DNA of 64,000 bases from a virus (IMGVR_UViG_3300015607_004160); one strand, 5' to 3'. Positions 671-43,368 are shown, counted from the first letter of the stretch. Numbers and translations: made by a program. Notes: generated by a model from the sequence alone, not told the origin.

Positions 671-976
671 TTAGATTGCCTCTAGTATCGTATCTAAGTT
701 ATAATCTCTTAGGTTCATTTTCTGAATAGTAGCTTCAATTTTCTTGTGTTTTATTTTGTGTATTTTTATCACTTTGAAAACTGTATACATTGATCGATAG
801 GTTCGTCCATATGTATCATTCATTAAAACTTTGAATACTCTTTGTCCGTTATTTATAAAATTTCTCATTTTACTAACACTTTCAAACTCTATTCCGACTT
901 CGGCTTCCTCACCATCTTCATAGCTTCTGTATCTATCAGAAAAAGATAATTTTAGTTCTACTTGATTGTACATCAT
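671..976 (-). CDS. hypothetical protein with C-terminal RDxK-type motif
   Basis: ORF; ends LRDYNLDTILEAI; ATGA overlap with upstream gene. Confidence 0.7.
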   Translation of the reverse strand: MMYNQVELKLSFSDRYRSYEDGEEAEVGIEFESVSKMRNFINNGQRVFKVLMNDTYGRTYRSMYTVFKVIKIHKIKHKKIEATIQKMNLRDYNLDTILEAI

Positions 977-1398
977 ACTAATTCGCTTAATCTTTTGTCC
1001 CTTATTAATGATAACAATTTTGGATCATTATAGGGTACATTTTCTGTGTGAAAAATAATTTTTGTATTATACCTATCCTTTATTTCACATTCAAGATATA
1101 TAGCATATTCTTTTTTATCTTTTAAATCACCAAATGAAATGAGTGATACTTTATTTGGAAGATTAAGAAATTCACTAAATTCATCATTACCAAGATAAGA
1201 CGATTTAAAATTTTCAATTGTAATAAATAAATTAACGTATTCAGATATTAACGGAAGTTTATCATTCATTTCCGTGGAAAAGGTATCTGATTTTACTACA
1301 CTATGAATCATATACCTTTCGAGACGATAACGCATTTGAATATAAAATCTTCTCCAAAATGAAGGAACTGATTTATCACGCTTTTTAAAAATATTCAT
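973..1398 (-). CDS. hypothetical protein with C-terminal RDxK-type motif
   Basis: ORF; ends IRDKRLSELV. Confidence 0.7.
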   Translation of the reverse strand: MNIFKKRDKSVPSFWRRFYIQMRYRLERYMIHSVVKSDTFSTEMNDKLPLISEYVNLFITIENFKSSYLGNDEFSEFLNLPNKVSLISFGDLKDKKEYAIYLECEIKDRYNTKIIFHTENVPYNDPKLLSLIRDKRLSELV

Positions 1399-1697
1399 AT
1401 TATTTCGTTTATTTTATAATTTCTAACAAAAGGTATCAAAACCGGATTTTTATGAGGGAATTCAGTATCAATCGCCATGTATTTATTATACATACCATCA
1501 GCATAAAGGCAATATCCAAGCGATTCAAAATTTGATGATGGGAACGGGAATAATGGAACTACAAAAAATGTATTAGAAACAATTTTTGATTGATTATTAC
1601 ATATTTCTATAATATCCTCAATATTATCTGTTGATGATAGTAATTTAGAATTGTGTATATTACCTTTATTATCTGATATATCGTAAACCAAATACAT
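1395..1697 (-). CDS. hypothetical protein with C-terminal RDxK-type motif
   Basis: ORF; ends VRNYKINEII. Confidence 0.7.
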   Translation of the reverse strand: MYLVYDISDNKGNIHNSKLLSSTDNIEDIIEICNNQSKIVSNTFFVVPLFPFPSSNFESLGYCLYADGMYNKYMAIDTEFPHKNPVLIPFVRNYKINEII

Positions 1698-2212
1698 TAC
1701 TTAAAAATTTCATATGTATCTAATGGTTGTCTTGGTTCAGAACTTAAAAGTTCAAACCTTTTACAACATTCTAAAATATATTTAGAGTGATCAATGTTCT
1801 TTTCATTGGCGGTACCTAAAGTTAAGTGTAATCCAAAATAAGGATCTCTTGCCAAACCAAGAGCTTCTCTGATATCTTCTGCTTCAGGAGACCATACTCT
1901 CAACCACCAGTGTTGACCATTGGAACGAGGCATATTTTGGTAGTAGAAAGTAATTTCTTTACCATTGAAAACATTAGATGCTTCCATAAATAATTCTCTA
2001 TCCATTCTATCAGAAATGAAGGTAACGTGAGTTCCTCTAAGTGGTTTATTTAAAATCAAGTTAAACCTTGTTTTTAAAAACCAAGCATAGTAATCCGCTA
2101 TGTCGCAATTTGTTTTAATCATTGCGACACATTTCCAAGAGGATTGATTTTTGTGCTTTTTAGTCACATCCTGAGGAGTAAAGTCTAATATGCCTTTTAT
2201 CTTAAATAACAT
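1697..2212 (-). CDS. 2H phosphoesterase superfamily protein
   Basis: Two HxT motifs (THVTF, LHLTL) about 65 aa apart. Confidence 0.7.
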   Translation of the reverse strand: MLFKIKGILDFTPQDVTKKHKNQSSWKCVAMIKTNCDIADYYAWFLKTRFNLILNKPLRGTHVTFISDRMDRELFMEASNVFNGKEITFYYQNMPRSNGQHWWLRVWSPEAEDIREALGLARDPYFGLHLTLGTANEKNIDHSKYILECCKRFELLSSEPRQPLDTYEIFK

Positions 2213-2216
2213 AGTA

Positions 2217-2248
2217 CAAAGATACGATTTTTAGAGGAAATAACCAAA
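2217..2248 (-). promoter_or_regulatory. Bacteroidota sigma70-type promoter
   Basis: Minus strand TTTG-N20-TATCTTTG, 4 nt before the ATG at 2212. Confidence 0.75.
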
Positions 2249-2249
2249 T

Positions 2250-2258
2250 TAATATATA
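2250..2258 (+). promoter_or_regulatory. TAATATATA putative phage late promoter
   Basis: Exact motif 4 nt before ATG 2263; recurs upstream of more than 20 genes. Confidence 0.6.
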
Positions 2259-2262
2259 CACT

Positions 2263-2421
2263 ATGAAAAAGCGTAAAAAATTGGATACCAAGTTGTTAAT
2301 AGAGAAATTTATTAATGATTATTGCAAACAAAAAGGCTGGAATCCAAAAAGTTTGTCTCCCAGCCAATTAATAGAAATTGTTGAACAAAAGGAGTATAAA
2401 ACTCCTAAAAATTATCTTTAA
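2263..2421 (+). CDS. small hypothetical protein (52 aa, not in ORF track)
   Basis: MKKRKKLDTKLLIEKFINDYCKQKGWNPKSLSPSQLIEIVEQKEYKTPKNYL*; fills an intergenic gap behind TAATATATA. Confidence 0.65.
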   Translation: MKKRKKLDTKLLIEKFINDYCKQKGWNPKSLSPSQLIEIVEQKEYKTPKNYL

Positions 2422-5210: not shown

Positions 5211-5423
5211 ATGACATATTTAAAGTCGGTGGTTTATTATGCAACGAGTAAACAAGAGGATCCAGACACAAGTAAACAAGGAAAGTTTTTTGATTCAAAT
5301 CTAATTGATATTTTACAAGGATATTTATCAGTATTGAGAAGAGTATCACCATCAAATAATAAAGAATACTTTCGTGTATTATCTTTGTACCGTGATATGC
5401 AAATTGATAGTATAAATAGCTAA
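5211..5423 (+). CDS. hypothetical protein with C-terminal RDxK-type motif
   Basis: ORF; ends YRDMQIDSINS. Confidence 0.6.
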   Translation: MTYLKSVVYYATSKQEDPDTSKQGKFFDSNLIDILQGYLSVLRRVSPSNNKEYFRVLSLYRDMQIDSINS

Positions 5424-5425
5424 TT

Positions 5426-9187: not shown

Positions 9188-9523
9188 ATGAATAAAATCA
9201 AAAAGTACGACGAATTATCCTCAGATATTGAGAATAAAGACTTAGATCCAGAAATACAAAAACTTAAAGGTGAGTATCAAATCGAAGAAATCTTAGATAT
9301 ATTTACCGACCCGAAAGATATACCTGTTACTGAAGGTGCTATTGGCATAAATACGGATTTATCAGTCAAAGAGGTTAAAAGAGGTGATTATATTTGGATA
9401 ACAGCTTTACTTAGAAAGCAAGGGCATAGCTTTACATCACCTGCCGTACAAGGTGTTATTAAATTAAGAGTTGTTGATATATTCTATGGATTGCAATACC
9501 TAAATAAAGTTATAAATAAATGA
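9188..9523 (+). CDS. hypothetical protein, CTS-like N-terminus
   Basis: MNKIKKYDEL; TAATATATA at 9175-9183. Confidence 0.75.
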   Translation: MNKIKKYDELSSDIENKDLDPEIQKLKGEYQIEEILDIFTDPKDIPVTEGAIGINTDLSVKEVKRGDYIWITALLRKQGHSFTSPAVQGVIKLRVVDIFYGLQYLNKVINK

Positions 9524-10551
9524 AATATTTAAAAATATTTGAAAAATTTAATACATTTTATTATAAGCTAACGCAGAATGAGTTTGATGAAATGATACAG
9601 AGTCCTGATATATACACATTTACTCAACGTGATATGTCAGTAATATCTGATTTTGCAAAAAGAAAAAAATATATCTATCAAACTAATAGTGTTGATATAA
9701 TAAAGTTTGACTCCAGAGAATGGTCATTATCTGATGATTGGGACTTAGATAAGTGGATATCATCATCCGAAATTAGAATACACGAAGAAAACAATATTAC
9801 AACATATAAAGCTAATCAAGATATTTCTAAGGGAACTCATTACTGTGGGACAATAGGACAAAAGGAAGAATATCTTAAAGTAGAAAACTTCACAATTAGA
9901 CTTAAAAAGTATATGATTAAATATCCAAATAGTAGATTTGGGGGATCGTTACCACTACCACAAAAGCATATGCTAAACATAGATATAATGAAATGTAGTG
10001 ATGAGTGGTTTTTAGTTGTATTTGACAATAATATTATGTATAAATGTGATCAATTAGATGGGCTAATAGAATTCATGTCGAATATAAATACATTGGAAGC
10101 ATTTAGAGATGAATACCATTCTCTATATGATATAGAAAAAAATAGAGAGGAATATTGGAATGGATATCTTAAGAAATTAAAAGCTGATCAGGATGAACTA
10201 CAAAAAGAGATGGAAGAGGATCCACACTATTTTACAATGATTAGCCAGGATGAGGTAGATGAACTTTATGATAACTTGGTCAGCTTCAAAGATGATGAGA
10301 TTGAAAAAATAAAAGAATTATTTAGCGATAAATATTTAGTATATAAAAAGACATGGAAAAAATATGACTCTGATAATACCGAAATCTTTATAGAGGCAAT
10401 TAGACCAAATTGCATAATTAGAATTTGGAAATTAGAAGATGAATGGTATATAGTTTCAACAAGTGATGCAAACGATAGAGGAAGAGTGAATGATAAATGT
10501 GATCAATTTGATGGACTAAAGAGATTATTAAATAAAATATTAATAAAATGA
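9520..10551 (+). CDS. hypothetical protein, CTS-like N-terminus, two DEW..CDQxDGL domains
   Basis: MKYLKIFEKF; internal duplication DEWFLV..CDQLDGL / DEWYIV..CDQFDGL. Confidence 0.8.
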   Translation: MKYLKIFEKFNTFYYKLTQNEFDEMIQSPDIYTFTQRDMSVISDFAKRKKYIYQTNSVDIIKFDSREWSLSDDWDLDKWISSSEIRIHEENNITTYKANQDISKGTHYCGTIGQKEEYLKVENFTIRLKKYMIKYPNSRFGGSLPLPQKHMLNIDIMKCSDEWFLVVFDNNIMYKCDQLDGLIEFMSNINTLEAFRDEYHSLYDIEKNREEYWNGYLKKLKADQDELQKEMEEDPHYFTMISQDEVDELYDNLVSFKDDEIEKIKELFSDKYLVYKKTWKKYDSDNTEIFIEAIRPNCIIRIWKLEDEWYIVSTSDANDRGRVNDKCDQFDGLKRLLNKILIK

Positions 10552-12446
10552 TACGTATTAAATTATTTGAAGAATTAAATAAAAGTAAGCCTAAGGTAAT
10601 TATTTTTCAAGGATCGCCAAGGGATAAAGATACTTGTCCAAATATGGACAGTAAAACACATACAATAGTTGAATACATCATTGAAAAATATTCTGATGTA
10701 TATGATTTTGATATAATTGATTTATCAGTAAACCAGTCTAAAAAGTCAATCATACAACCATGTAAAGGATGTGTATCAACTGCTGGGGGATATCATTGTA
10801 TTGCAAAAGGTGAAAGAGTAGAAACAAAGTATGGATTTAAGAAAATTGAAGATATTCAAATTGGAGATGAACTATCTACTGGAGTAGTTGAAAATGCTTG
10901 GATGTCAGGAAAAGACTCTGATGTATTTGAAGTGATAGTTTCGGATGGTAGAAAAATAAAACTTACCGACAATCACCCAATAAAAATAATAAATCCAATA
11001 TATAAAAATGGTAATAAGAGAAAATTAATTGGATATGAAGAAAAGTGGAAAAATGTAAAAGATATCAAAATTGGTGATAGACTTCCATTTAATTTTAATG
11101 AAAATTTTATTAACGATGATAATAACATTAATGTTTATCATATTGCTGGTATGATATGGGGAGATGGATCATATAAGAGTGGAAAATTAAGATTGTGTTA
11201 TGATATAAGAGATGAAAAACTTTTTAATTTTATATCATCTAATTTTGAAATTTCAGTTTCACAAGGTCCAATATCAAAAAATACTACTACCAACTGGATA
11301 TCTTTTAAAGATAGAAATATAAACATCTCGCTAAACACTTTAATTAAATCAGAAAAGATTAAAAATATTCACAGTAGAAGAATACCAGATATAATAATGA
11401 ATTCTTCTAAAATACAAATATCTAAATTTTTAAATGGATGGTTTGCTACTGATGGATCTGTTATATTAAGAAATAATAATGGAAATAAATATTATGAGAT
11501 AAATTTAACAAGTGTTAGTAAAGATTCTCTAAGAGATTGTCAAATGTTATTATCAAAGTTTGGAATAAAATCATCAATATCATATCTAGATCATATAGAA
11601 ACTTTTAGATTTAATAAATTTATTAAAAGGTCTTCTATGTTGATTATAAGCGGTAAAAATGCCAATATATTCATGCGAGAAATCGGTATAATTAACAAAG
11701 ACTACAAATTTGAATATATTAAATATAGAAATTCTAAAAAGCATACATCCTTCGGAAAAATTGAAAGCATAGAAAGCATTGAAACATCGGATGTCTATGA
11801 TATATCTGTTAGTGATTCTCACAAATTTATATGTGAAGGTATTGAGGTACATAATTGTCATTGGTACTGCACATGTTATAAAAAGAATGATGAAAAAAAG
11901 CCAGACTTTATGTATGACGGAGACATATATACCAAGCTTGAAAAGTGTGATGCTTTTTTAGTATTTAGTCCAATACATTGGTACTCTGTTAGTAGTCAAG
12001 TAAAAGCTTTATTTGATAGATTAGTTTGTGCTAGTCAAACATTACACTATGATGACGCTATTAAAGTATTGGGAAAAGGAAATTTGAAAAATTCAGAAAT
12101 AACCGGTAAATTTGCACAATCCGGTGAATATAACGATTTGTTAAAGAATCACTTAGAGGGTAAAGTAGCAGGATTTTATGTACATGGTGATGATGGAGCA
12201 AACGATTATGATGATAAAGAATTGCCAGAATCATTTAAAGACGAAAAATTCACACCTAAGCAAGCAATAACGCCGATAGTAAATCAATGTAGATACTCTG
12301 GTATAAACGTCCCTAATGACCTTATAGAGGCATTCTATATAAATAAAGATAAGGATTATTATACAGCAAATTTAGATTTAGAAAATCTATCAAAACCATT
12401 TGATAATGCTGATAGATTATTAAAAAATTTAAAGAAATACATATGA
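10548..12446 (+). CDS. iron-sulfur flavoprotein / NADPH-FMN reductase family protein interrupted by an intein
   Basis: QGSPR, PCKGCVST..H|CHWYCTCY, SPIHWY, KALFDRL. Confidence 0.85.
   Translation: MIRIKLFEELNKSKPKVIIFQGSPRDKDTCPNMDSKTHTIVEYIIEKYSDVYDFDIIDLSVNQSKKSIIQPCKGCVSTAGGYHCIAKGERVETKYGFKKIEDIQIGDELSTGVVENAWMSGKDSDVFEVIVSDGRKIKLTDNHPIKIINPIYKNGNKRKLIGYEEKWKNVKDIKIGDRLPFNFNENFINDDNNINVYHIAGMIWGDGSYKSGKLRLCYDIRDEKLFNFISSNFEISVSQGPISKNTTTNWISFKDRNINISLNTLIKSEKIKNIHSRRIPDIIMNSSKIQISKFLNGWFATDGSVILRNNNGNKYYEINLTSVSKDSLRDCQMLLSKFGIKSSISYLDHIETFRFNKFIKRSSMLIISGKNANIFMREIGIINKDYKFEYIKYRNSKKHTSFGKIESIESIETSDVYDISVSDSHKFICEGIEVHNCHWYCTCYKKNDEKKPDFMYDGDIYTKLEKCDAFLVFSPIHWYSVSSQVKALFDRLVCASQTLHYDDAIKVLGKGNLKNSEITGKFAQSGEYNDLLKNHLEGKVAGFYVHGDDGANDYDDKELPESFKDEKFTPKQAITPIVNQCRYSGINVPNDLIEAFYINKDKDYYTANLDLENLSKPFDNADRLLKNLKKYI
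10797..11855 (+). mobile_element. intein with LAGLIDADG homing endonuclease (353 aa)
   Basis: Starts CIAKG; block B LTDNHP; IAGMIWGDGS and FLNGWFATDGS; block F VYDISV; ends VHN followed by +1 Cys. Confidence 0.92.
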
Positions 12447-12470: not shown

Positions 12471-12857
12471 ATGAAATATTTAAAAACATTTGAATCAAAA
12501 AAATCAGGTCCTAATTTCAAAAAAATTATAATTGATGATTTTGTTATATATCAAGGAAAAGATGCTGAGGCAAATGATTATGTTACATTAGAAGTAGCAA
12601 ATGATAATGATATGTGGTTTCATGCAAAAGGTGTTCCCGGTAGTCACGTCGTAATGAAAATAAAAGACAAACTACCAACACAAGAGACAATTAAAAAGGT
12701 GGCTTTAATAGCTGCTAAGAATTGTAAATCAAAAGATAATAGTATTAAAGTACTTTATTGTAAGAAAAAATTCGTTAAAAAAGAAAAAGGAATGAATCCC
12801 GGACAAGTTAAAGTAGATTATAATAACGCTGATGAAATAATCATTGAAAAAAAATAA
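12471..12857 (+). CDS. stand-alone NFACT RNA-binding (DUF814) domain protein
   Basis: GKDAEAND, DMWFHAKGVPGSHVV, PGQV; CTS-like MKYLKTFES. Confidence 0.85.
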   Translation: MKYLKTFESKKSGPNFKKIIIDDFVIYQGKDAEANDYVTLEVANDNDMWFHAKGVPGSHVVMKIKDKLPTQETIKKVALIAAKNCKSKDNSIKVLYCKKKFVKKEKGMNPGQVKVDYNNADEIIIEKK

Positions 12858-13014
12858 TATATACCTATATGACAGGAGTTTATTTAACAAAAGGAGCAAG
12901 TGATATCTTTGACTCTATGGAAAAATAATCATTGAAAAAAAATAATATATACCTATATGACAGGAGTTTATTTAACAAAAGGAGCAAGTGATATCTTTGA
13001 CTCTATGGAAAAAT
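12835..13014. repeat. exact 88-bp tandem duplication
   Basis: ATG 12869 and ATG 12957 lie in identical context; includes TAATATATA at 12855 and 12943. Confidence 0.9.
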
Positions 13015-14567
13015 TAGGAATAAAAAAAGTCAATAGGCTTATTAATGATCTGAAAGCTATTAATTCAAATGCACCTAACTATACAGAAAAAATTACTATT
13101 GGTAAGGATAGTCTTACTATGAAGGTACTTGAAGAGGTTTTAGGATATACTAAATACAACAAGAAAGAGTTTGAGGAATTTTTAAAGGTTTTTAAAAACA
13201 TATCAAATAAAAACATGGGAAGCGGCAAAAAACAAATTGATAAAGAGAGTATCCAAATTAAATTTACGGATGACTTCGCAATGATGTTAGATAAAATAGA
13301 TGATCAAATTTGTTGGGCACTGCTTGACATTGAGCAAAATCCCGAAATAAAAAATAAATTTGGCATTGAGAAATTAGATGTTTCTGATACAGATTTCAGC
13401 TTTGATGTTTACTACCCAAATGGAAGAAGAGGATTAATTAAAATAGCGGAATTCATAAGAACATTTTTTGGAAATAAATTTGACAAAGGAACAATATATA
13501 ACTTTGTAAGGGATTATAATAAAATTAAAAATAGGGCACTCAATAAATCTGATGATGAGATTCAAGTGCCTGAATTCAAATTCAATCCTAAAGATGTTAG
13601 ATCCACTTTTATATCATTAACAACCGAAACATATCCACATGGTCATGAAGAAGGTGTTTACAAATATTTACCAGAGGGATTACAAACTGATAAATATGGT
13701 AATCTTTACCACATAATTGGCAAATCCGATACTATGTTTACATCACACTTAGATACAGCATCAAGAGATAAAAGTGATATTATATTAGTAGCACAGTCAA
13801 AAAATGGACAAGATTACATAATGAGTGATGGTACAACTATTTTAGGAGCAGATGATAAAGCTGGGGTTGCAGTAATGATGTATATGATGGCTCATAATGT
13901 TCCCGGAGTTTATTATTTCTTCTTAGGTGAAGAAAGAGGTGGAATTGGATCTGGTAAAGTGGCCGATGATTTTAGATCCTTTGAATTTCTTAAAGAAATT
14001 AAGAAAGTAATTTCATTTGATAGAAGAAACTATTTTTCTGTTATTACAGAGCAAATGGGAATGAGATGCTGCTCAAATGAGTTTGCTGAATCACTTTGTA
14101 AAGAATTAAATAAAAGTGGTTTAAAATTGAACCTAGATCCTACAGGTGTATTTACTGATTCCTATAATTTTGTTGATTATGTTCCAGAGTGTACTAATGT
14201 ATCTGTTGGATATTTTAATGAACATACACACGATGAGATTCAGAATATGACTTATTTAGAAAGATTAGCCAAAGCTTGTGTATCCGCTGATTGGAATAAA
14301 CTTACTATAAAGAGAAAAATTGGATTTGATTCTGAAGTATTGGAAAAATGGTCTGACTTAATAAGGGATCTAAAAGAGTCGATATTTTTCAATGATTCTA
14401 CTATTAAAGGAGTAGAAGGTAAAGTGGTTGTTTCAATTGAATTTGATGATGTCTCTTTAAGAAATGCTTATGATGATTTATCACAAATTGAAACAATTTT
14501 ATTAATGCATAGATGTAATCCTGATATAAAATTTGATGGTAACATTTTAAAAATACAAATTGGATAA
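12957..14567 (+). CDS. M28-family peptidase with N-terminal extension
   Basis: HLDT, GADDKAG, GEE, SFDRR, TDS, EHT; paralogue of 2418-3560. Confidence 0.85.
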   Translation: MTGVYLTKGASDIFDSMEKLGIKKVNRLINDLKAINSNAPNYTEKITIGKDSLTMKVLEEVLGYTKYNKKEFEEFLKVFKNISNKNMGSGKKQIDKESIQIKFTDDFAMMLDKIDDQICWALLDIEQNPEIKNKFGIEKLDVSDTDFSFDVYYPNGRRGLIKIAEFIRTFFGNKFDKGTIYNFVRDYNKIKNRALNKSDDEIQVPEFKFNPKDVRSTFISLTTETYPHGHEEGVYKYLPEGLQTDKYGNLYHIIGKSDTMFTSHLDTASRDKSDIILVAQSKNGQDYIMSDGTTILGADDKAGVAVMMYMMAHNVPGVYYFFLGEERGGIGSGKVADDFRSFEFLKEIKKVISFDRRNYFSVITEQMGMRCCSNEFAESLCKELNKSGLKLNLDPTGVFTDSYNFVDYVPECTNVSVGYFNEHTHDEIQNMTYLERLAKACVSADWNKLTIKRKIGFDSEVLEKWSDLIRDLKESIFFNDSTIKGVEGKVVVSIEFDDVSLRNAYDDLSQIETILLMHRCNPDIKFDGNILKIQIG

Positions 14568-15009
14568 TATGAAACTTAAAAAATACTTTGAAATTAACGA
14601 AAGAGAAGGGTTTGATGATATAGATCAACCATTAGATGACTATCCTGAAATTCCTGAACTTGAGGAAGTTGAAGAAATAGCTCAGGATGATATCATTGAA
14701 AACTTACTATCTACACTTAGAAAAATGATAAAAAATTCTGGATTTGAGAATTATTATGTATTTACTGATGATGAAGGCAGCATTAATGTTCAATTTGTTT
14801 TAAATAAAACAGAAAAAATAGGTAGTGTTATGAAAATTATGAATCTACTTAAGAAGCTAGAAACTGATATCCTAATACAATACGAATCTGAGTTCGATTT
14901 ATGGGAAGTCAAAAGTGGTGAACCTTTAATAACAGCTAAATTCTTCTATGATGAAGATGTGGCGGCACCTACTTCATTAAATGATATTGAAGGCGAAGTT
15001 CCATTTTAA
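14560..15009 (+). CDS. acidic hypothetical protein, CTS-like N-terminus (start may be 14569)
   Basis: MKLKKYFEINE. Confidence 0.7.
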   Translation: MDNMKLKKYFEINEREGFDDIDQPLDDYPEIPELEEVEEIAQDDIIENLLSTLRKMIKNSGFENYYVFTDDEGSINVQFVLNKTEKIGSVMKIMNLLKKLETDILIQYESEFDLWEVKSGEPLITAKFFYDEDVAAPTSLNDIEGEVPF

Positions 15010-15023
15010 AAAAAATTTAGATA

Positions 15024-15344
15024 ATGAAACATATTAAAAAATTTAACGAAAGATTTTTTGAAAGAACTATTAAAAAAGTATCTCATACTGCACAGAGAAT
15101 AGTTCTTCCAACATTTACCTCGAAGGAATGTGAGGATCTTGGGTATAAAATTGGATTTGAGTTAGAAAAAGATAGGTATGCCTTTTCAAGAAAAGATATT
15201 AAATTAGGAGATGAAGTGTTCTATCTTGGACATGATGGTGTTGGTGGATGGTGGTATGGAAACAAAACGATAGCTGACCAAGAATTAGTTGATAAGGCCG
15301 AAAATTTACAATTTTATAAGAAAGTTGGTGTAGTTGTAGATTAA
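15024..15344 (+). CDS. hypothetical protein, CTS-like N-terminus
   Basis: MKHIKKFNE. Confidence 0.7.
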   Translation: MKHIKKFNERFFERTIKKVSHTAQRIVLPTFTSKECEDLGYKIGFELEKDRYAFSRKDIKLGDEVFYLGHDGVGGWWYGNKTIADQELVDKAENLQFYKKVGVVVD

Positions 15345-15757
15345 ATTATCCATTTCGGAGGTTGTATAATTGATTGTGTATTAAACAGTCGTTTATGCTT
15401 GTAAAATTTTTCAATTTTTAGTAAGAATTCATTCAGCTCCTCATATGTATCTAATATAAAATATCTGCTGCTATCTTTATTTGGACTACCAAAGTCCTCA
15501 AAATCAACTGAAACTAAATAATACTCATCATATTGTTTATCTATTGATATTCTATAAAAATAATCACCATTCCTTTTATAAAACTCTAATTGAATATCAG
15601 AATTTCTTGTTAGGTAGAAAAGGTCCCATTCATTGATATCTGCGAATTTCTTTACTAGGTCTAATTCCCTTTTATTAAGTTCTTCTGGTTTATCAATTTT
15701 GTTATATTCATCGATTTTTATTTCTCTAAAATTTTCAAATAATTTAAGATATTTCAT
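15341..15757 (-). CDS. hypothetical protein, CTS-like N-terminus, DEY..D domain
   Basis: MKYLKLFENF; DEYYLV..ILDTYEEL; TAATATATA at 15767-15775. Confidence 0.75.
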   Translation of the reverse strand: MKYLKLFENFREIKIDEYNKIDKPEELNKRELDLVKKFADINEWDLFYLTRNSDIQLEFYKRNGDYFYRISIDKQYDEYYLVSVDFEDFGSPNKDSSRYFILDTYEELNEFLLKIEKFYKHKRLFNTQSIIQPPKWII

Positions 15758-15778
15758 AATTAATTATATATATTAAAT

Positions 15779-16000
15779 ATGAAATATTATTGTGATACTA
15801 AAAGACATCTAATTTGCATTCCATACTCCATTGAAAACTTACATAAAATGGCAGATAATCTTAATATTAAAAGATGTTGGTTTCATAAAACACATTATGA
15901 TATACCCAAAAGGAGAATAGACGAAATAACTAATAAGTGTTTGGTAGTAAGTACCATAGATATTGTTAGGATAATTCGTGGAATTGTCATATCTTTGTAG
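15779..16000 (+). CDS. DUF4031-like small protein
   Basis: LHKMA..L.IKR.WF...HYDI. Confidence 0.7.
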   Translation: MKYYCDTKRHLICIPYSIENLHKMADNLNIKRCWFHKTHYDIPKRRIDEITNKCLVVSTIDIVRIIRGIVISL

Positions 16001-16001
16001 T

Positions 16002-16625
16002 ATGAATTATAATTTTCTCTATTCGAATTCATTTGAAAGGAAGTTTAATAGAAAACCTAAAGAGTGGACTATTGAACAAATTCATGCACTTTATGAAAAA
16101 GCCAAGGAAAGATCAAATAAAAGATGGAAATCTAGATCTGAATTTATCAAGAAAATAGTTGGTAAGATTCCAAAAAATAGTAAAGATGAATATGTTATCT
16201 ATTATTATCATCCTAAAGATAATAATAATATTTATTGTTATACTTTTAAATATAACTCTGAATATAGATCACATAGTATCGGACAGGGCAGAGTCGAATT
16301 TTCAAAAGATATAGTTGCTGGCCGTCAGGAAAAGCTTGACTTTATTCTTTCACATGATGAATCATTTGAACTAGGTCAAGAATATTATAAACTTGATAAA
16401 ATGTGTTCTTATTTAGAACATAGAGTTATGAAAATTTTATGGATGTTAATAGAGGATAAACTGAGAGCTCACTTTAAGAAAACAGATACACTACCAAAAA
16501 GTGTATTTATAATTGATATTGGAACCAAAAAATACTATGTTAAGGTCGACGACCAGCATAGATTTGGATATATGACATTTCACTTAGGTGGAGAATATAC
16601 TGATGAGATTATTAAAATTGACTAA
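16002..16625 (+). CDS. hypothetical protein
   Basis: ATG 16002 follows TATCTTTG (15990-15997); internal RQEKLDFIL motif. Confidence 0.7.
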   Translation: MNYNFLYSNSFERKFNRKPKEWTIEQIHALYEKAKERSNKRWKSRSEFIKKIVGKIPKNSKDEYVIYYYHPKDNNNIYCYTFKYNSEYRSHSIGQGRVEFSKDIVAGRQEKLDFILSHDESFELGQEYYKLDKMCSYLEHRVMKILWMLIEDKLRAHFKKTDTLPKSVFIIDIGTKKYYVKVDDQHRFGYMTFHLGGEYTDEIIKID

Positions 16626-17093
16626 ATGGACTTAATCTATAAAATATACTCGGTTTTCTTATATGATCATCAGTTAAATCATGATTATCTCATTTTGTAT
16701 AATTATGGTGATTACGATTTGCAGCGGGGGCTTGGATATGATATTGGATATTCGCTTAATAAAATTCACAATTTAGATAAATATTCTCCAAGTTTTAATG
16801 ATGAATCTATTATAGAGATGCAAAATGCGGCAATAAGAGGTAATAAAATGTTTGTTAAGAATGATGGGTTCTTAACCTTAGTCAAAGGTGGAACCTCACC
16901 ACGACCACGATATAATATCTATGATGTATACTGGAATGAAACAAAGTCCAATATTAATATTCATGAATATGAAGTTGCTGCTATTTGGAATGTTGGTAAG
17001 GATTCTTGCTCAGTCTATAGAATATGGGAAGAAAAAGATGAGAGAGAAAGAATAATAAGAAATAATAAGTTAAATTTACTATTAACAATTTAA
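16626..17093 (+). CDS. hypothetical protein with C-terminal RDxK-type motif
   Basis: Ends IRNNKLNLLLTI. Confidence 0.7.
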   Translation: MDLIYKIYSVFLYDHQLNHDYLILYNYGDYDLQRGLGYDIGYSLNKIHNLDKYSPSFNDESIIEMQNAAIRGNKMFVKNDGFLTLVKGGTSPRPRYNIYDVYWNETKSNINIHEYEVAAIWNVGKDSCSVYRIWEEKDERERIIRNNKLNLLLTI

Positions 17094-17237: not shown

Positions 17238-17602
17238 GGGGGTGAATTGGAATAGATTCGCATCGTAATGGTAGTTAAGCAAGCATCGGCTGAGTTATCC
17301 GATTAATAAATTGACATCAACGCTTTAAACGGCAAAACAAACGAAGTAGCAAGCAAAGAAGATTTAGTATTTGCTCTACGCAACAACTTACTCACTGTGA
17401 ATGAGTTTGAAGTAGCTTAATTGATACTTTCATAAAAATGTCACCTGAATCACAACAGTAAATAGTGATAGTTTTTTGTTAAATTCTTTGTGAACATAAA
17501 AATTAACTATTTTGATAATTTAGAAAAATTATCTAAGCTTGTGAATGATTAGTTATTATTAACTGAAGAAGACGGGAGAGTCGGAGCTCCCCACCTCCAC
17601 AA
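17238..17602 (+). ncRNA. ssrA: tmRNA
   Basis: Acceptor stem GGGGGTG/CACCTCC-A with G3:U; T-stem GGGAG/CTCCC; tag ORF 17331-17420 after TTAAAC. Confidence 0.9.
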
Positions 17603-18521: not shown

Positions 18522-18744
18522 ATGAAAATAGTTTGCATAAGTAAAAAATTACCGGGTAGAACAAAAGAAGAGTATCTATATCTAGCCATAGGTAAAATAT
18601 ACGACTGCCTAAATAAATCAATTTAAAGATGATCCAATGATTAAAATAAAAGATGATAATGGAGAAGTTGTCTACTATCATAAAAAATGTTTTGAAACAT
18701 TGGAAATCAATAGATATGAAAAACTTAATGAGTTAGGGATTTAA
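18522..18744 (+). pseudogene. frameshifted small gene with C-terminal RDxK-type motif
   Basis: MKIVCI..LAIGKIYDCL stops at 18626; the +1 frame continues INQFKDDPMIKIKDDNGEVVYYHKKCFETLEINRYEKLNELGI*. Confidence 0.6.
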
Positions 18745-18760
18745 TTAGTATCTTTGTAAT

Positions 18761-19258
18761 ATGTTAAAAGTAGGTGATATATATTATCTTTCTGACCAGT
18801 TTGGCCCTAAATTTGTCAAAATTATTATGATTGGTGATATCCATGAAAAAAATGATAATTGGGTCTACTTTTATAAATCTACTTGGCTTAATAATATTGT
18901 TAAAGTTAGTTATCCTGAAAATGGTCTTGGAAACCTTGGTTGTGATAAATCACAAGTAAAAAAATGGCATTTTGAAAAACTACTTGATAGGTTTACTTAT
19001 ACTTCAAGCTTTAAAGGATGTATTAAAATTAATGGTGAAATAGTTCAAGCAATTAAAGATAATAGAGAGTCAGACATAATTAAATTAATTAAGAATGACC
19101 CAAATATATATCCATATATGGAAGTGATTCGTGGTGATAGATGTTTACTTCAACATGACGAAAAATTAGTCGATTTTGATAAATGTGATATAATCACTTG
19201 TAAAAAAATTTCAAAACAAGACTTCAGAAATATAAAATTAAATAAGATATTAGAATAA
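18761..19258 (+). CDS. hypothetical protein with C-terminal RDxK-type motif
   Basis: TATCTTTG at 18749-18756; ends FRNIKLNKILE. Confidence 0.7.
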   Translation: MLKVGDIYYLSDQFGPKFVKIIMIGDIHEKNDNWVYFYKSTWLNNIVKVSYPENGLGNLGCDKSQVKKWHFEKLLDRFTYTSSFKGCIKINGEIVQAIKDNRESDIIKLIKNDPNIYPYMEVIRGDRCLLQHDEKLVDFDKCDIITCKKISKQDFRNIKLNKILE

Positions 19259-20752
19259 TTCTTCTTCTAATTGTTTTATTTCATCTAATACCGCTTTTAA
19301 TTCTTCCTTTCTATTCATCATTATCTTCTTATTCTTTTTCCTATCATCATAAACATCCTTCAACATTTTTATTGTTGGGGATTCTCTTTTTAAGAAAACA
19401 GCGTTATTAGCACAAATAACATGATTAATTGGGTCTATAGGAAGTCCATTATCACAATATTCCGGATTCTTATCATCTTTTATTCCAATAAAATTTTCAG
19501 GTGCAATATAGAACTGCCGTTGTGTTGTTGGATAAAGACTAGCGAAGTCATAAATTGCACACCATTGATTCATACCAACAATTGGATCTTTAACCCATCC
19601 ACCAGCAATACCATGACCGCCATTACTAGATTCATCCTTTTCAGGTCTAAATAGGACTATGTTATCTTGTTCTCTAAATCTATTTCTTAAAACTCCCTCT
19701 GTAATAGCAAGTGATCCTAAAGCATTATTCATTTGAGAAATAACATCAACAATTTTAATCTTTGCTAATGAAGAAATCGCATATATAATTGAGATATAGT
19801 TTCGGGCTTCATGTATTTTTTGAACAAGAACAGAGTCAACTGCATTATAATACATAAATGTCTCAAAATCCTCTTCATATAGTTTTTGTAATGATCCAGT
19901 ATATTTAATCTTCTCAACACCAACCAACTTATTAGAAACAAAGTCTAATGATGATGATTCTTTTACCTTAATTGAAGTATCACATATTTCATAAAGTTGC
20001 ATGTAATCAAATATCATTCTATGTGCAGGAATTTCCTCTGTAGAATTCCAAACCTTATTTAGCCTCTTTGTTGGAGAAGAAACCGCTGGATTTATGGAAT
20101 ATTCTTTACCATTAAAATTCTTCTTAAGCTTTTTACTTCTATTAACCAAGTAAACCCAGTCATAATTAATAAAGTTCCAACCAGTAATGATCGGCATCTT
20201 AATTGTCATTTTATTGAAGAATGCATATAACATATCAAATTCATCATCATATTTGATGTATTTAAATTTATAATCAGAATTAAATTTCTCAAAATACTTA
20301 TTCGTATTAGTTCTAATTCTTTCCTGCATATCCTCCGGCATATCTCTTAGACCCAATAAAATAATTTTATCCTCATAAACGATTGATATAGATAAAACTC
20401 TAGTAGGAGCTGTTTCAGCATCAGGAAATCCATCCACGATTTCGGTTTCAATATCGACAAAGTATATACCAGGTAGATTATATTCAAATATTTCTTCTTT
20501 TTCTGAATCTGGAAGTTGGTCTAAAAATTCATAAATGGCATATCTATCCGGGTGTGTTACTTCAATTAGTTTAACATGCTTACCATCCCATGATTTATAT
20601 AGTGGGTGCGCATCCTTATCATTTTCATCACAAACAACATATTTTTGTGGATTATCCCACTCATAATATTTAAGCTTGATATCACCTGATTTATCTACAT
20701 AACTAACAACCAATCTTTTAGTATTGGTTAAATATTGAGTATCGACTAACAT
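19250..20752 (-). CDS. family-B DNA polymerase, N-terminal subunit (3'-5' exonuclease + motif A)
   Basis: ExoI DIETE, ExoII GWNFINYD, ExoIII YNAVD, motif A DFASLYP; ends in the fingers helix with no NSxYG or YGDTDS. Confidence 0.85.
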   Translation of the reverse strand: MLVDTQYLTNTKRLVVSYVDKSGDIKLKYYEWDNPQKYVVCDENDKDAHPLYKSWDGKHVKLIEVTHPDRYAIYEFLDQLPDSEKEEIFEYNLPGIYFVDIETEIVDGFPDAETAPTRVLSISIVYEDKIILLGLRDMPEDMQERIRTNTNKYFEKFNSDYKFKYIKYDDEFDMLYAFFNKMTIKMPIITGWNFINYDWVYLVNRSKKLKKNFNGKEYSINPAVSSPTKRLNKVWNSTEEIPAHRMIFDYMQLYEICDTSIKVKESSSLDFVSNKLVGVEKIKYTGSLQKLYEEDFETFMYYNAVDSVLVQKIHEARNYISIIYAISSLAKIKIVDVISQMNNALGSLAITEGVLRNRFREQDNIVLFRPEKDESSNGGHGIAGGWVKDPIVGMNQWCAIYDFASLYPTTQRQFYIAPENFIGIKDDKNPEYCDNGLPIDPINHVICANNAVFLKRESPTIKMLKDVYDDRKKNKKIMMNRKEELKAVLDEIKQLEEELF

Positions 20753-21000
20753 TCTACTATTTTATTTATTTTTATATCTCTCATTTCTTCTTTTGTGTAA
20801 AAATAATCATATAGGTATGGTCTGATTGTTCCCCCTCTGGTATCATCAAATGGTATAATATTTTGGTTATCTTTACTATATTCTTTATCAGATACAAAGT
20901 GATTTAATCCTTGAAAGTTGCTCCAATAGAAATACATTTCTCCTTCTATATAATCAAATCCAAGTGCTCTAAAGCTTTTTTTACACATTAATTTTTCCAT
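20746..21000 (-). CDS. hypothetical protein with C-terminal RDxK-type motif
   Basis: Ends MRDIKINKIVEC. Confidence 0.7.
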   Translation of the reverse strand: MEKLMCKKSFRALGFDYIEGEMYFYWSNFQGLNHFVSDKEYSKDNQNIIPFDDTRGGTIRPYLYDYFYTKEEMRDIKINKIVEC

Positions 21001-31516: not shown

Positions 31517-33175
31517 ATGTCAGACATAAGAAAAGATATGGTAAAGTTCACACCAAGAGAGGAACAAGAAAGGGTTAATGACTTTATCTTCAAAGTCAAG
31601 AAAGAAAGTCCAGATATGAAATTTTTTCTTTTAAATCTACCAACAGGTGTTGGGAAAAGTCATCTGGCTATGATGATAGCTAATTCTTACATTAATAAAG
31701 TTGATAATGGAGCTAAAGTAGATATAATTACAGCAAGTAAAATTCTACAAGATCAATATGCAGATACATATGAATCTATTAGTGATTTAAAAGGTAAAGA
31801 AAATTATAAATGTAGTCAATATGCCTGTAGTTGTGCTCAAGGTATGGAATTCAACAAGTTAAATAAGACAAAATGTGATTTTTGTCCTTATGATAGTGCC
31901 AAACAAGGATATATTGGTGGTAAAGTTTCTTTAACTAATTTCTATCTATATTTAATATATGCTATTTATAGTCCTAAAATATTAGAAAGTAGAGGATCAA
32001 AAGTATTAATTGTTGATGAAGCGCATGAATTTGATGATGTTATGAGTGACTTCATTTCTATAAAAATGACAGAAGGCATAATTAAAAGAATGAAATTTAC
32101 TAATGAATATCAAATTCTTAAAGATTTCAATAAAGTTAAAAATATAAAAGGCTACATAGAATTTTTAACACAACTAAACATTGAAATTGTTGAAACAATA
32201 GATGCTATTGATAAATCAATGGAAGGAGGAAGAAGTCCTTTGGCAGACAAACGAGATCTAAAAATTGCTAAAATAACTGGTGGGGCGAATCAAGATTTAA
32301 AATTATTTCAAATAATAGCTGATCTAAAACAATATCAATTAAAAATTGAAATCTTCTTAAAAGAATATAAGGAAAATCCGGATAACTGGGTACTAGAAAC
32401 ATCAGTGAATCCGAAAACAAATCAAAATGAATTGTCATTAGAACCAATATGGGCTTATGACTATTTAAATAAATATGTTTGGGGTAATTATGACATGGTT
32501 ATCCTAATGTCTGGGACAATCCTAAATAAGCAAATATTTACCACTCTAAATGGTATAGATGTTTCAAAGTCGGCGTATTATTCTATGCCTTCTCCATTCC
32601 CCGCAAAAAACAGACCTATTTATTATATGCCTGTTGGAAAAATGAGTTACACTCAGAAAGAAGAAACTTTTAAAAAATATGTACCTTTTATTGATAAATT
32701 ATTAAATAAATATAAAGGCAAAAAAGGAATTATACATACCAATTCATTTGAGTTAGCTGATTGGATTAAAAATGATGTTGGAAATAGTAGATTAGTATTT
32801 CATACATCTGAAGATAAAAACGAAGCATTACAAAATCATTTTGATTCAGAAGATGATACGGTAATTGTTAGTCCATCCATGGGTACTGGTGTTTCCTTTG
32901 ATCATGATAAAAGTAGATTCCAAATAATTGCTAAAGTTCCATATCCAAGTTTAGCATCACAGAAGAATAAGCTAAGACAAAAAAATAATCCAGAGTGGTA
33001 TGCTTGGAAAACGGTTTGTGGATTATTACAGATGACAGGTCGTTCTGTAAGAAGTAAAACAGACCATGCAGACACTATAATTATTGATGGATCTTTCTCT
33101 GATGTATTAAGATATAGTTCTCAATATATTCCTAATTGGGTACAAGAGTCAATTAAGAAAATAGATGTAAAGTAA
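31517..33175 (+). CDS. DinG/XPD-family SF2 helicase
   Basis: PTGVGKS, Cys cluster (Fe-S), DEAH, MSGT, QMTGRSVR. Confidence 0.88.
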   Translation: MSDIRKDMVKFTPREEQERVNDFIFKVKKESPDMKFFLLNLPTGVGKSHLAMMIANSYINKVDNGAKVDIITASKILQDQYADTYESISDLKGKENYKCSQYACSCAQGMEFNKLNKTKCDFCPYDSAKQGYIGGKVSLTNFYLYLIYAIYSPKILESRGSKVLIVDEAHEFDDVMSDFISIKMTEGIIKRMKFTNEYQILKDFNKVKNIKGYIEFLTQLNIEIVETIDAIDKSMEGGRSPLADKRDLKIAKITGGANQDLKLFQIIADLKQYQLKIEIFLKEYKENPDNWVLETSVNPKTNQNELSLEPIWAYDYLNKYVWGNYDMVILMSGTILNKQIFTTLNGIDVSKSAYYSMPSPFPAKNRPIYYMPVGKMSYTQKEETFKKYVPFIDKLLNKYKGKKGIIHTNSFELADWIKNDVGNSRLVFHTSEDKNEALQNHFDSEDDTVIVSPSMGTGVSFDHDKSRFQIIAKVPYPSLASQKNKLRQKNNPEWYAWKTVCGLLQMTGRSVRSKTDHADTIIIDGSFSDVLRYSSQYIPNWVQESIKKIDVK

Positions 33176-33264: not shown

Positions 33265-33567
33265 TTACTTTTGTTTAGCTAAAATTGCTTTTTGAAAAGC
33301 TTCTGGTAATTTCTTTTGTTTAGCGGTTAATCCCTTTTTCTTTACATGCTTATCTTCTTTATCTTCCTTTTCTTTCTTTGGTGCTTTCTTTTTTTCAGTA
33401 ACACTCTCCCCTTGACAATTTTTGCAATCACATTCATCACAATCACATTCATCACAATTGCAATTACAGTCAGGACATTTTTCATTAAAAACTTCCTCAT
33501 CTAAAAGTTCTTCAACTGCGTATGCTTTATTAATTCCGAATGTCTCAAACGTTTTTAAATATTTCAT
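33265..33567 (-). CDS. small Cys-rich basic protein, CTS-like N-terminus
   Basis: MKYLKTFETF; CPDCNCNCDECDCDECDCKNC; Lys-rich tail. Confidence 0.75.
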   Translation of the reverse strand: MKYLKTFETFGINKAYAVEELLDEEVFNEKCPDCNCNCDECDCDECDCKNCQGESVTEKKKAPKKEKEDKEDKHVKKKGLTAKQKKLPEAFQKAILAKQK

Positions 33568-41767: not shown

Positions 41768-41826
41768 TAAATAAATCAATCACATCATTTACAACAACGT
41801 AGAAACCATATTCTAATATATAGAAT

Positions 41827-42534
41827 ATGGTTTCTTGTTTTATATGTAAAGTAGAATTTATTAATAACAATGGCGGTCAGCTCACTAATCACATAAAAAA
41901 ACATCATAATATCAATCTAGTGGATTATGTTATTTTAACAGAATATAATAATATTCCACCAAAATGTAAATGTGGATTATGTGATGAAGTTCCGCATTTA
42001 TATAGAGGTAAATTTTTAAACTATGCTAAAGGACATGATGGGTTTAAATTTAAAGAAAATGAATATATTAAAAAATATGGTATTCCGAAATGCAAAAAAT
42101 GTGATAAGGAGGTGGGATTTTATCGTGGAAGTCCAAATAAATATTGTAAATGTAGACCAAGATACAAATCAATTAATGGTGAAATTTTTGAATGGGGAAG
42201 GCTAATTATAAATAAGAGATATAAAAAAACAAACATTTTATATCAAAGCAGCTATGAATATGATTTTTTAAAATTTTGTGAAGAAAATAATGTTCTACAT
42301 CTGGTATCAAGATCTCCATCATTTAAATACTTAAATAGTAAATCACATCATTTTCCAGATTTTCTATTTAATGATGAATATGTTATAGAAATAAAATCAA
42401 AGTGGATATTAGATTTACAAGGTGGAATGGATATTATACAAGAAAAGATTAAATCAATCGGATCCAAATATAAATATTTACTTATATTAGACAAAGATTA
42501 TTATAAATTTAATAAAATTTTAAAAGGTGTATAA
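41827..42534 (+). CDS. putative homing endonuclease (Zn finger + PD-(D/E)xK)
   Basis: CxxC..H..H, CKCG, SSYE, FPDF..IEIKS; TAATATATA at 41814-41822. Confidence 0.65.
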   Translation: MVSCFICKVEFINNNGGQLTNHIKKHHNINLVDYVILTEYNNIPPKCKCGLCDEVPHLYRGKFLNYAKGHDGFKFKENEYIKKYGIPKCKKCDKEVGFYRGSPNKYCKCRPRYKSINGEIFEWGRLIINKRYKKTNILYQSSYEYDFLKFCEENNVLHLVSRSPSFKYLNSKSHHFPDFLFNDEYVIEIKSKWILDLQGGMDIIQEKIKSIGSKYKYLLILDKDYYKFNKILKGV

Positions 42535-42967
42535 ATTTATAATCAAATCTGGTCCGTGTTGTATGTCACTTGAGTTTCATGGTGATATTATTTTATTTAT
42601 AGGAGATAAGGATAGATTCATTTATTATATTGAGGTAGATAAAAAAACGTCAATTAATATTAAAAATAGTATAAAAATTACTACATCAAGTATAATACTC
42701 TCTAAAGGTATAGAAGATCCAAATAGATATTTTTTACAAATAAGAGGTGGTTTTTCATATATTGATTGTGATAAGGCTATTGAATCAATTTATTATATCA
42801 CATCTCATAAAAATAAAAGAGATATAAATAGTGATAAATATCATTCAAAAAATTATAGAGATTTGTGTAAATCAATAGAGGTTTATGATGACCATAATGT
42901 AAAAATTACTACCGAAGATGAATGGGAAAAATTTATAAGAGATATAAAGTTGAAATCACTAGTTTAG
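42527..42967 (+). CDS. hypothetical protein with C-terminal RDxK-type motif
   Basis: Ends IRDIKLKSLV. Confidence 0.65.
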   Translation: MYKFIIKSGPCCMSLEFHGDIILFIGDKDRFIYYIEVDKKTSINIKNSIKITTSSIILSKGIEDPNRYFLQIRGGFSYIDCDKAIESIYYITSHKNKRDINSDKYHSKNYRDLCKSIEVYDDHNVKITTEDEWEKFIRDIKLKSLV

Positions 42968-43011
42968 GATAATCTTTTTAATTAGTTAAAATAAAATCGT
43001 ATCTTTGTAGT

Positions 43012-43368
43012 ATGTATAATAGAGGAGAAATAAGAAAAATCGTAGAACAATACGTTATTACAGATGATGGAGTTACTCACATATCTGATATGTTAGAAGA
43101 AATTCAAAATCGTATGTTTTCTATAATTAAAGATACTCACTATTATACCCCGGATAAATATACTCAAAGTAGAGCGGGTCAAAGAAGTTCTAAATTTGTT
43201 GAGTTATGTGCCTCTGAAAAGTGGGAAGATGCTTTATCAATGGCCGACTATATGAATAAGACAATTCTAGAAAAAACTCCTTGTTTTCAAAATTTTGTCA
43301 AGTCAATCAAAGAATCATCAGATTATATTTCAACTACAAGAGAAATGAAGTTAAGATTTATACTTTAA
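43012..43368 (+). CDS. hypothetical protein with C-terminal RDxK-type motif
   Basis: TATCTTTG at 43000-43007; ends TREMKLRFIL. Confidence 0.7.
   Translation: MYNRGEIRKIVEQYVITDDGVTHISDMLEEIQNRMFSIIKDTHYYTPDKYTQSRAGQRSSKFVELCASEKWEDALSMADYMNKTILEKTPCFQNFVKSIKESSDYISTTREMKLRFIL

Follow-up and report, generated by a model that had tools for sequence, protein, structure and literature searches.

About one in seven proteins of an uncultured huge phage and its relatives ends in the same short peptide, and almost all of these are small, presumably early proteins of unknown function. We describe this element, the C-tag, from a 64,000-nucleotide stretch of viral DNA (IMGVR_UViG_3300015607_004160; the whole stretch is called the window below), which is part of a Mahaphage-type genome. 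In its strict form the C-tag reads R-[DNE]-x-K-[LI]-x-x-[LI]-[LIV]. It recurs on proteins whose bodies have no detectable similarity, takes a consensus of its own in each tagged lineage, and is never found together with a second, N-terminal label. We see roughly an even chance that the C-tag is a docking handle by which one common partner recognises the accessory proteins of the presumed early class.

The C-tag in the window

A reading of the window made from its sequence alone (the sequence-only reading) had quoted ten such tails, and all ten are present as quoted. The title motif of that reading, given above as the strict form, fits six of them: VRNYKINEII on a 100-amino-acid open reading frame (ORF) at 1395-1697 (minus strand; tail 1398-1427), IRNNKLNLLLTI on a 155-amino-acid ORF at 16626-17093 (plus; tail 17055-17090), FRNIKLNKILE on a 165-amino-acid ORF at 18761-19258 (plus; tail 19223-19255), MRDIKINKIVEC on an 84-amino-acid ORF at 20746-21000 (minus; tail 20749-20784), IRDIKLKSLV on a 146-amino-acid ORF with a GTG start at 42527-42967 (plus; tail 42935-42964) and TREMKLRFIL on a 118-amino-acid ORF at 43012-43368 (plus; tail 43336-43365). 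The other four are looser variants, with N, R or Q in place of the Lys, or Y in place of the acidic residue: LRDYNLDTILEAI (101 amino acids; 671-976, minus; tail 674-712), IRDKRLSELV (141 amino acids; 973-1398, minus; tail 976-1005), the weak variant YRDMQIDSINS (70 amino acids; 5211-5423, plus; tail 5388-5420) and the L-G-I variant NRYEKLNELGI. This last tail belongs to a 35-codon ORF at 18637-18744 (plus); the frame assigned to it earlier, 18522-18744, is not open.

Scored with a 10-column position-specific scoring matrix (PSSM) from the related phage LR756502, eight of the ten tails reach 15.9-22.5 bits (22.5 at 18761-19258, 19.5 at 16626-17093, 19.0 at 1395-1697, 18.3 at 20746-21000, 16.9 at 42527-42967, 16.8 at 671-976 and 15.9 at 973-1398). 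Two of the four looser tails thus score 16-17 bits with a matrix from a different genome. The remaining two are marginal: 5211-5423 at 8.2 bits, and 43012-43368 at 8.9 although it matches the strict pattern.

The strict pattern occurs six times in the 79 ORFs of the window (20,255 amino acids), in every case at the C-terminus with the Arg 9-11 residues from the end, while 2000 shuffles gave on average 0.10 matches anywhere and 0.0035 at C-termini. A looser pattern matches ten times, nine of them C-terminal against 0.04 expected. The comparison with shuffled sequence that the sequence-only reading had proposed is therefore clear in its outcome: the motif is far commoner at C-termini than internally or in shuffles. 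The internal copy reported earlier, GRQEKLDFIL, is real. It lies at residue 116 of 215 (16320-16349; PSSM 8.9) in the plus-strand ORF 15978-16625 and is kept in the LR756502 ortholog (65611-66285; 38% identity), which has RDEKLTFIL at the equivalent place. A further loose match, KRDLKIAKIT (32249-32278, plus), is internal to a DEAD/Rad3-type helicase (31517-33175; Pfam helicase domains), and its LR756502 counterpart reads QRDLKISKIL there, scoring 20.0 with the PSSM.

The bodies of the tagged window proteins share no similarity by BLAST or iterated hidden Markov models (HMMs), as had been claimed; a single homologous family, which the sequence-only reading had named as a refuting outcome, is not detectable. 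Pfam and PHROGs gave nothing consistent for the ten proteins (the 973-1398 product matches no family in either), and the ESM Atlas gave no meaningful neighbours for the 18761-19258 product. Where orthologs of window proteins are present, the tail is the best-kept part while the bodies diverge. The orthologs of 671-976 (P0002-P0005 and LR756502 379449-379721) retain the tail with bodies down to 40% identity, and among eight homologs of 20746-21000 the best-conserved part is the segment RPYLYDYFYTKEEMRDIKINKI.

Scale across related genomes

The closest public relatives of the window are uncultured huge phages (LR756502, LR745206, LR756504 and LR756501/3), with the Lak phages farther off. LR756502, at 642 kb, has a family B DNA polymerase 77% identical and a ribonucleotide reductase 60% identical to those of the window. 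The relatives come from the huge-phage study of Al-Shayeb et al. (2020; PMC7162821), in which the Mahaphage clade takes in all genomes larger than 634 kb and the hosts are predicted to be Bacteroidetes. Complete relatives served as stand-ins for the rest of the window's genome: we analysed LR756502, LR756504, LR756501, LR756500, Lak-A1 and the cultured Chryseobacterium phage MA9V-2, and trained one PSSM per genome.

In LR756502 the strict pattern matches 68 times, 54 of them within 15 residues of the stop. An iterated 10-column PSSM finds 141-149 C-terminal matches among 995 ORFs, compared with 0-2 in shuffled proteins, and the lineage-trained PSSM brings the count to 167 (16.8%). Taken together, 150-167 of the 995 ORFs (15-17%) are tagged. 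The tag first noticed in ten proteins is thus genuine, and ten was an underestimate for an element on roughly 15% of all proteins. Its carriers are small, with a median of 112 amino acids (range 55-622). Their genes are spread over the whole genome, densest at both ends of the record, and they cluster (55 adjacent pairs against 22.5 expected), with a median distance to the next gene of -1 nt. Since 711 of the 995 ORFs have no BLASTP homolog (E <1e-5) in five related huge or jumbo phage genomes and core genes are still 40-77% identical, the accessory proteome of LR756502 turns over extremely fast.

The tag is also widespread in IMG/VR. A codon-level pattern for its commonest form retrieved 111 stretches, from which 80 loci were fetched; in 48 of these the pattern is in frame and ends an ORF. 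The flanking DNA contains 994 distinct ORFs, of which 149 are tagged; the richest 15-kb locus has 18 tagged ORFs among 43. Tag-bearing contigs number in the dozens, are up to 476 kb long and were recovered from many samples, so the tag characterises a good-sized group of uncultured phages and is no peculiarity of a single genome. A profile of the tail was also searched against 1.84 billion protein representatives at a threshold of E 0.001, for which a 10-residue motif is too short, and only the query's own cluster and one other protein (P0006) passed. The latter, from a global protein library, is a tail-fibre-like repeat protein of 1181 amino acids that contains GFLRDNKLNSIL four times; each G-F-L-R-D-N-K-L-N-S-I-L copy lies in a repeat of about 50 residues, and the link to the tag may be chance. 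A 13-column tail profile yielded no candidates when genome records were screened with it, an outcome that says little for a model of this length. The sequence-only reading knew of no described function for the motif, and the literature that we searched on Mahaphage, jumbo-phage targeting sequences, phage ClpP and degrons, and short linear motifs in phage early proteins likewise describes no such tag.

A separable peptide under protein-level selection

In an alignment of the tails on the Arg (position 0), only columns -1 to +8 have high information content; those upstream are at background level, and conservation ends sharply at -1. Synonymous codons are used roughly as they are genome-wide (AGA, AGG and CGT at 0.70, 0.21 and 0.07 of Arg codons in tails, versus 0.71, 0.15 and 0.07), so selection acts on the peptide and not on DNA or RNA. 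Leu (TTA/CTA) alternates with Ile (ATA/ATT), and Asp, Asn and Glu replace one another, so that the DNA varies within a constant residue class; Val and Phe are excluded. The sole nucleotide-level trace is a mild excess of A-ending codons in tails (ATA 0.77 versus 0.50, GGA 0.70 versus 0.37).

In the window and LR756502 together (157 tails), between 0 and 7 residues follow position +8, most often one (80/157), and 40 tails end in L/I-G-I/L. These L-G-I forms excepted, the last residues are mostly polar. Internal copies of the motif occur in some 25-38 proteins, and transmembrane-like segments are rare in tagged proteins (8.7%).

The tag is separable from the body that carries it. BLAST resolves the 157 tagged proteins into 150 components. 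When 245 bodies from three genomes were compared by BLAST, phmmer and three HMM rounds, 191 clusters resulted, and 171 bodies remained singletons. PHROGs and Pfam provide no family common to tagged proteins; the five Pfam matches among 150 of them are all different (Flavokinase, BtpA, DUF6011, DUF2158 and Zn_Ribbon_TF). In the tagged riboflavin kinase the domain ends at residue 128 of 214. An ortholog pair makes the same point by comparison: LR756502 571854-572252 and an LR756501 protein are 41% identical over 98 residues up to LKKEF, from where only the LR756502 member runs on, for 17 residues, into the tag.

The tail is predicted to be a C-terminal alpha-helix, on the evidence of one medium-confidence model. 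In an AlphaFold2 model of 20749-21000 built on an eight-homolog alignment, with a predicted local distance difference test score (pLDDT) of 72, a helix at residues 70-82 covers the tag behind a small beta body; the single-sequence prediction (pLDDT 45) is unusable. Foldseek, run on the better model, gave only weak SH3-like matches (E >0.06). The L-x-x-L-G-I endings suit a Schellman-type helix cap, and a T-x-x-E box before the tag and an L-G-I ending are classical helix caps. Plotted as a helical wheel, the tail shows a ladder of Arg 0, Leu/Ile +4 and Leu +8, with Lys +3 and Ile +7 alongside. Arg 0 and Lys +3 lie inside the hydrophobic arc, and with Asp or Glu at +1 and +5/+6 the net charge is close to zero. 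The "portable amphipathic helix" proposed by the sequence-only reading accordingly needs amending: a portable C-terminal helix on unrelated small, mostly early-class proteins is what the data support, but because Arg and Lys fall within the hydrophobic face it is not a clean amphipathic membrane helix.

Lineage versions and a second, N-terminal label

Each tagged lineage has its own version. In LR756502 (167/995 ORFs) the consensus is I-R-[DNE]-x-K-[LI]-[ND]-x-[IL]-[LG], most often with one further residue; in LR756504 (134/955) it is R-K-x-[KRI]-I-[EDN]-x-L-[LI], most often with nothing after it; and in LR756501 (26/1051) it is K-R-T-x-L-I-D-x-M-L. With their own PSSMs, LR756500, Lak-A1 and MA9V-2 have the tag at noise level. 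Position +1 is D/N/E in 90% of LR756502 tags, K in 65% of those of LR756504 and T in 77% of those of LR756501, and position +3 is K, K/R/I and L, respectively. Invariant across the tagged lineages are Arg 0, an aliphatic residue at +4, a hydrophobic one at +7 and Leu +8, which together make up one helical face. Positions +1 and +3 shift in concert over more than 100 unrelated proteins per genome. This is the pattern that one co-evolving reader would give, and it is compatible with lineage-specific expansion as well. LR756500 has a shared ending of another kind: about 13 proteins of 250-370 amino acids (L071-L090; for example 12631-15907 and 197835-198758) end in N-A-D-D-F-G-F-F-D-N, and these resemble one paralogous family.

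The second label is an N-terminal leader of the type MK[HY][LI]Kx[FY][NE] (the N-tag), which in the form MKYLKxFE has a composition like that of the T4 capsid targeting sequence (CTS). Nine window ORFs carry it, on the plus strand with starts at 9188, 9520, 12471, 15024, 50981 and 55219 and on the minus strand at 15341-15757, 21569-23518 and 33265-33567. None of the nine has a C-tag, which bears out the earlier remark that tag and leader do not occur together. The same exclusion holds in LR756502, where at least 65 ORFs start with the leader and none of the 65 carries the C-tag, versus about 10 expected, and in the IMG/VR loci, where none of 24 N-tagged ORFs has both. Together the two labels cover more than one fifth of all proteins.

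The two sets of genes also differ in what precedes them. In LR756502, AATATATA stands just before the start in 40 of 52 N-tag gene runs versus 2 of 81 C-tag runs, and TA(n2)TTTG is upstream of 18 of 81 C-tag runs versus 6 of 52 N-tag runs. In the window, the TAnnTTTG sites named by the sequence-only reading are all there, at 2217 (minus), 15990, 18749 and 43000, each as TATCTTTG; those at 18749 and 43000 precede the tagged ORFs 18761-19258 and 43012-43368. Because their operons lack AATATATA and some have a host-type promoter motif, we infer that C-tag genes are early. By these motifs there would be two promoter classes, one early, host-type and associated with the C-tag, the other later, phage-specific and associated with the N-tag. 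More tentatively, and with appreciably less than even confidence, we propose that two mutually exclusive terminal labels address the proteome and that a dedicated, co-evolving phage receptor sorts some 150 effectors, concentrates them or times their removal.

A docking handle and its alternatives

The core hydrophobic-R-[DNE]-x-K-[LI]-[ND]-x-[IL]-[LG], usually with 0-3 further polar residues, is predicted to form a helix of about 11-13 residues. Protein-level selection retains it on the small, fast-evolving proteins of a clade of huge Bacteroidetes-type phages, where it is separable from the bodies. If the C-tag is a docking handle, the face made of Arg 0, Leu/Ile +4, Ile/Leu +7 and Leu +8, flanked by Lys +3, would insert in a groove of the partner. 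The common partner would handle about 15% of the proteome as one class, and for the tagged proteins the outcome may be recruitment, timed removal or sorting. In each genome the consensus shifts in concert over more than 100 unrelated proteins, which makes a phage-encoded partner more likely than a conserved host protein.

Several observations weigh against this interpretation. LR756504 has paralog arrays of 11-20 members, and the expansion of one founder can give a lineage consensus. The TAnnTTTG motif precedes only 18 of the 81 C-tag runs, and early timing comes from promoter motifs only. With internal copies in 25-38 proteins and 0-7 trailing residues the motif is not strictly terminal, and so the tag could be a structural or oligomerisation element that tends to end domains. 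Conserved residues on the far side of the wheel, Asp +1 and Asn +5, suit a buried or sandwiched helix equally well. Many bodies may be very diverged homologs, beyond the reach of sequence methods. Finally, phylogenetic profiling for a reader left 52 LR756502 candidates, none of them obvious. These are the LR756502 proteins confined to tag-bearing genomes, and they include homologs of window genes matching M28 peptidase and a DnaJ-type zinc-finger domain (Pfam).

The tail could instead mark early proteins for timed destruction by a phage AAA+ protease made of an N-domain-less ClpC-like unfoldase and ClpP paralogs. This idea, also raised by the sequence-only reading, is testable; the support that it gains is circumstantial, and we regard it as possible but unsupported and, on balance, unlikely. 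The window encodes a bona fide ClpP (53994-54680, minus; PF00574, E 2e-59), which shares no synteny with the LR756502 homolog. Both LR756502 and LR756504 have a ClpC-like gene, two strong ClpP copies and a weaker one; in LR756502 these Clp genes lie at 58.6 kb, 112.1 kb, 364.6 kb and 440.5-442.7 kb. The ClpC-like protein of the relatives is a double AAA+ protein without an N-domain (707 amino acids in LR756502); it carries a UVR motif and a ClpP-docking type of VGF loop. Together with the ClpP paralogs it would amount to a complete phage-encoded AAA+ protease. The early class suggested by the promoter motifs and the preferred distance from the end, one residue after +8, also suit a degron. The genes and the tag match only in part, however: LR756502 and LR756504 have both, Lak-A1 has the ClpC-like gene and no tag, and LR756501 lacks ClpP although it has tags and the ClpC-like gene. 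The internal copies and the variable extensions make recognition of a free C-terminus less likely, and most of these tails have polar last residues, unlike known C-degrons, whose ends are non-polar.

Clp would in any case have a conventional client in the phage's own transfer-messenger RNA (tmRNA), and no further tag is needed; tmRNA is the classical source of Clp substrates. A tmRNA-like gene at 17238-17602 (plus) matches Rfam RF00023 over its full length at 29.3 bits (E 1.7e-9), below the gathering score of 47. It has a good acceptor stem and a possible tag frame ending ...NEFEVA, and the reading frame does not resemble the C-tag. ARAGORN called no tmRNA or tRNA on the window, but we find the candidate convincing as a sub-threshold yet probably real tmRNA. 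In LR756502, a C-tagged protein of 71 amino acids (320919-321134; L007:26919-27131) has a body matching the UVR region of the ClpC-like protein (BLASTP E 2e-07).

We hold it as improbable as a degron that the tagged proteins are one ancient superfamily, descended from a single small ancestor by extreme divergence, with the C-terminal helix as the last recognisable part and family signature. Tagged genes do stand in tandem arrays; LR756504 has paralog clusters of 20 and 11 members with a longer conserved end, F-x-T-x-x-E-[YH]-R-K, and a F-Y-T-x-E-E-x-R-D form occurs in window ORF 20746-21000 and several LR756502 proteins. The large share of LR756502 ORFs without a homolog in the five related genomes likewise indicates very fast divergence. 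A superfamily is hard to reconcile with lengths from 55 to 622 amino acids, with tags on different known folds (Flavokinase, BtpA, zinc ribbons), with 171 of 245 bodies still singletons after profile iteration, with an ortholog pair that differs by the tail alone, and with the abrupt stop of conservation at -1.

A self-contained helix without a dedicated reader, whether a cap that stabilises small proteins or shields them against the host's tail-specific proteases, a weak generic membrane or nucleic-acid binder, or a means of tail-to-tail association, seems to us marginally less probable still. It would account for the capping features (T/S-x-x-E before the tag, L-G-I after it) and for the tolerance of internal positions, and the rarity of transmembrane-like segments suggests that tagged proteins are probably soluble and may need stabilising. 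Yet the invariant Arg, the fixed spacing and the exclusion of Val and Phe are more specific than a stability cap needs, and the charged residues in the hydrophobic face, with a net charge near zero, are unlike membrane-targeting helices. Nor are concerted lineage-specific shifts expected of an intrinsic property, or a cap that C-tagged proteins need and N-tagged proteins never do. A complex prediction for tail-to-tail association of 1398-1697 with 20749-21000 scored 0.01, which gives no answer and carries no weight either way. Most improbable by far is that the peptide is the by-product of a nucleotide-level signal (a 3'-end promoter, the next gene's translation-initiation region or a cassette recombination site): tight gene packing and the mild A-ending codon excess would suit one, but near genome-wide codon use, including CGT for Arg, and the free alternation of Leu and Ile appear to have largely refuted it already, the motif is always in frame and ORF-ending, and 23 of 150 tagged genes have no same-strand gene downstream.

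Other features of the window

The window is AT-rich (26-34% G+C), and many of its ORFs match no family. Its recognisable genes include a class II ribonucleotide reductase, a family B DNA polymerase, a Rad3-type helicase, ClpP and an intein-bearing flavodoxin-like gene. The polymerase ORF (19250-20752, minus) is only 500 amino acids long; beside the exonuclease domain it holds just the first third of a polymerase domain (Pfam 19-155 of 453). LR756502 has the same arrangement, and the enzyme may be split into separate genes. At 10548-12446 (plus), a flavodoxin/FMN-reductase-like gene is interrupted by a LAGLIDADG intein (Pfam Intein_splicing, LAGLIDADG_3 and FMN_red).

Significance and comparison with known systems

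Most of the proteome of a huge phage is without recognisable function, and a label on about 15% of proteins offers a handle on this dark matter by setting out a functional class independent of homology. The C-tag predicts a hub protein that might be fished with a 12-residue peptide, and its lineage-specific variants are a natural co-evolution data set. The N- and C-labels together suggest that proteins are sorted by terminal peptides tied to promoter class. If a reader is found, the tag could become a portable targeting or degradation signal in Bacteroidetes.

Several known categories do not fit. A single family or Pfam domain is at odds with the lack of detectable similarity outside the tail. 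The beta-clamp motif (Q-L-[SD]-L-F) has a Gln position that is missing here and another spacing, and nearly all of the roughly 150 carriers are without a recognisable replication domain. A MinD/FtsA-type membrane helix is cleanly amphipathic and carries a net positive charge, unlike the tail, which has Arg 0 and Lys +3 among its hydrophobic residues and is almost neutral overall.

C-degrons such as ssrA and MuA-type ClpX motifs are also short C-terminal peptides on many substrates, and ClpP, a ClpC-like protein and a tmRNA-like gene are phage-encoded here. Unlike them, the C-tag is not strictly terminal, has mostly polar ends, is predicted to be helical and has an invariant Arg, and the Clp genes and the tag co-occur uncleanly. 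LxxLL-type and other helical motifs, which dock in a groove with a charge clamp, also resemble it: K-[LI]-x-x-[IL]-L is formally LxxLL-like, with basic flanks, about three turns and one hydrophobic ladder. Those motifs, by contrast, are eukaryotic and regulatory and occur on a handful of co-activators; we know of no prokaryotic or viral system that uses an LxxLL-like motif proteome-wide.

The peptides of encapsulins and microcompartments resemble the C-tag in being short and terminal (C-terminal in encapsulins, helical in bacterial microcompartments) and in docking diverse cargo on one shell. The encapsulin cargo consensus is of the G-S-L-x-I-G-S-L-K type, and the L-G-I endings of some tails recall its G-S-L-G-I form. 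That peptide is Gly/Ser-rich and extended, in contrast to the tail described here, which is also C-terminal but has the logo R-[DNE]-x-K-[LI]-[ND]-x-[IL]-[LG], contains Arg and Lys and is predicted to be helical. Clients are also far more numerous here, at about 150 per genome. No encapsulin shell gene turned up in our analyses, which included no search aimed at shell genes.

The T4 CTS, carried by IPI-III and Alt, invites comparison in another respect. It is N-terminal, belongs to late head proteins and is cut by the prohead protease at L/I-x-E. In 141-167 LR756502 ORFs, and in every window case, the C-tag sits 9-16 residues from the C-terminus; it has no evident cleavage site, and stands on genes without the promoter motif of N-tag genes, AATATATA preceding 2 of 81 C-tag runs versus 40 of 52 N-tag runs, a contrast drawn from motifs only. 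What the CTS and the C-tag have in common is a terminal peptide of about 10 residues on otherwise unrelated phage proteins, which in T4 sends them as a class to one destination.

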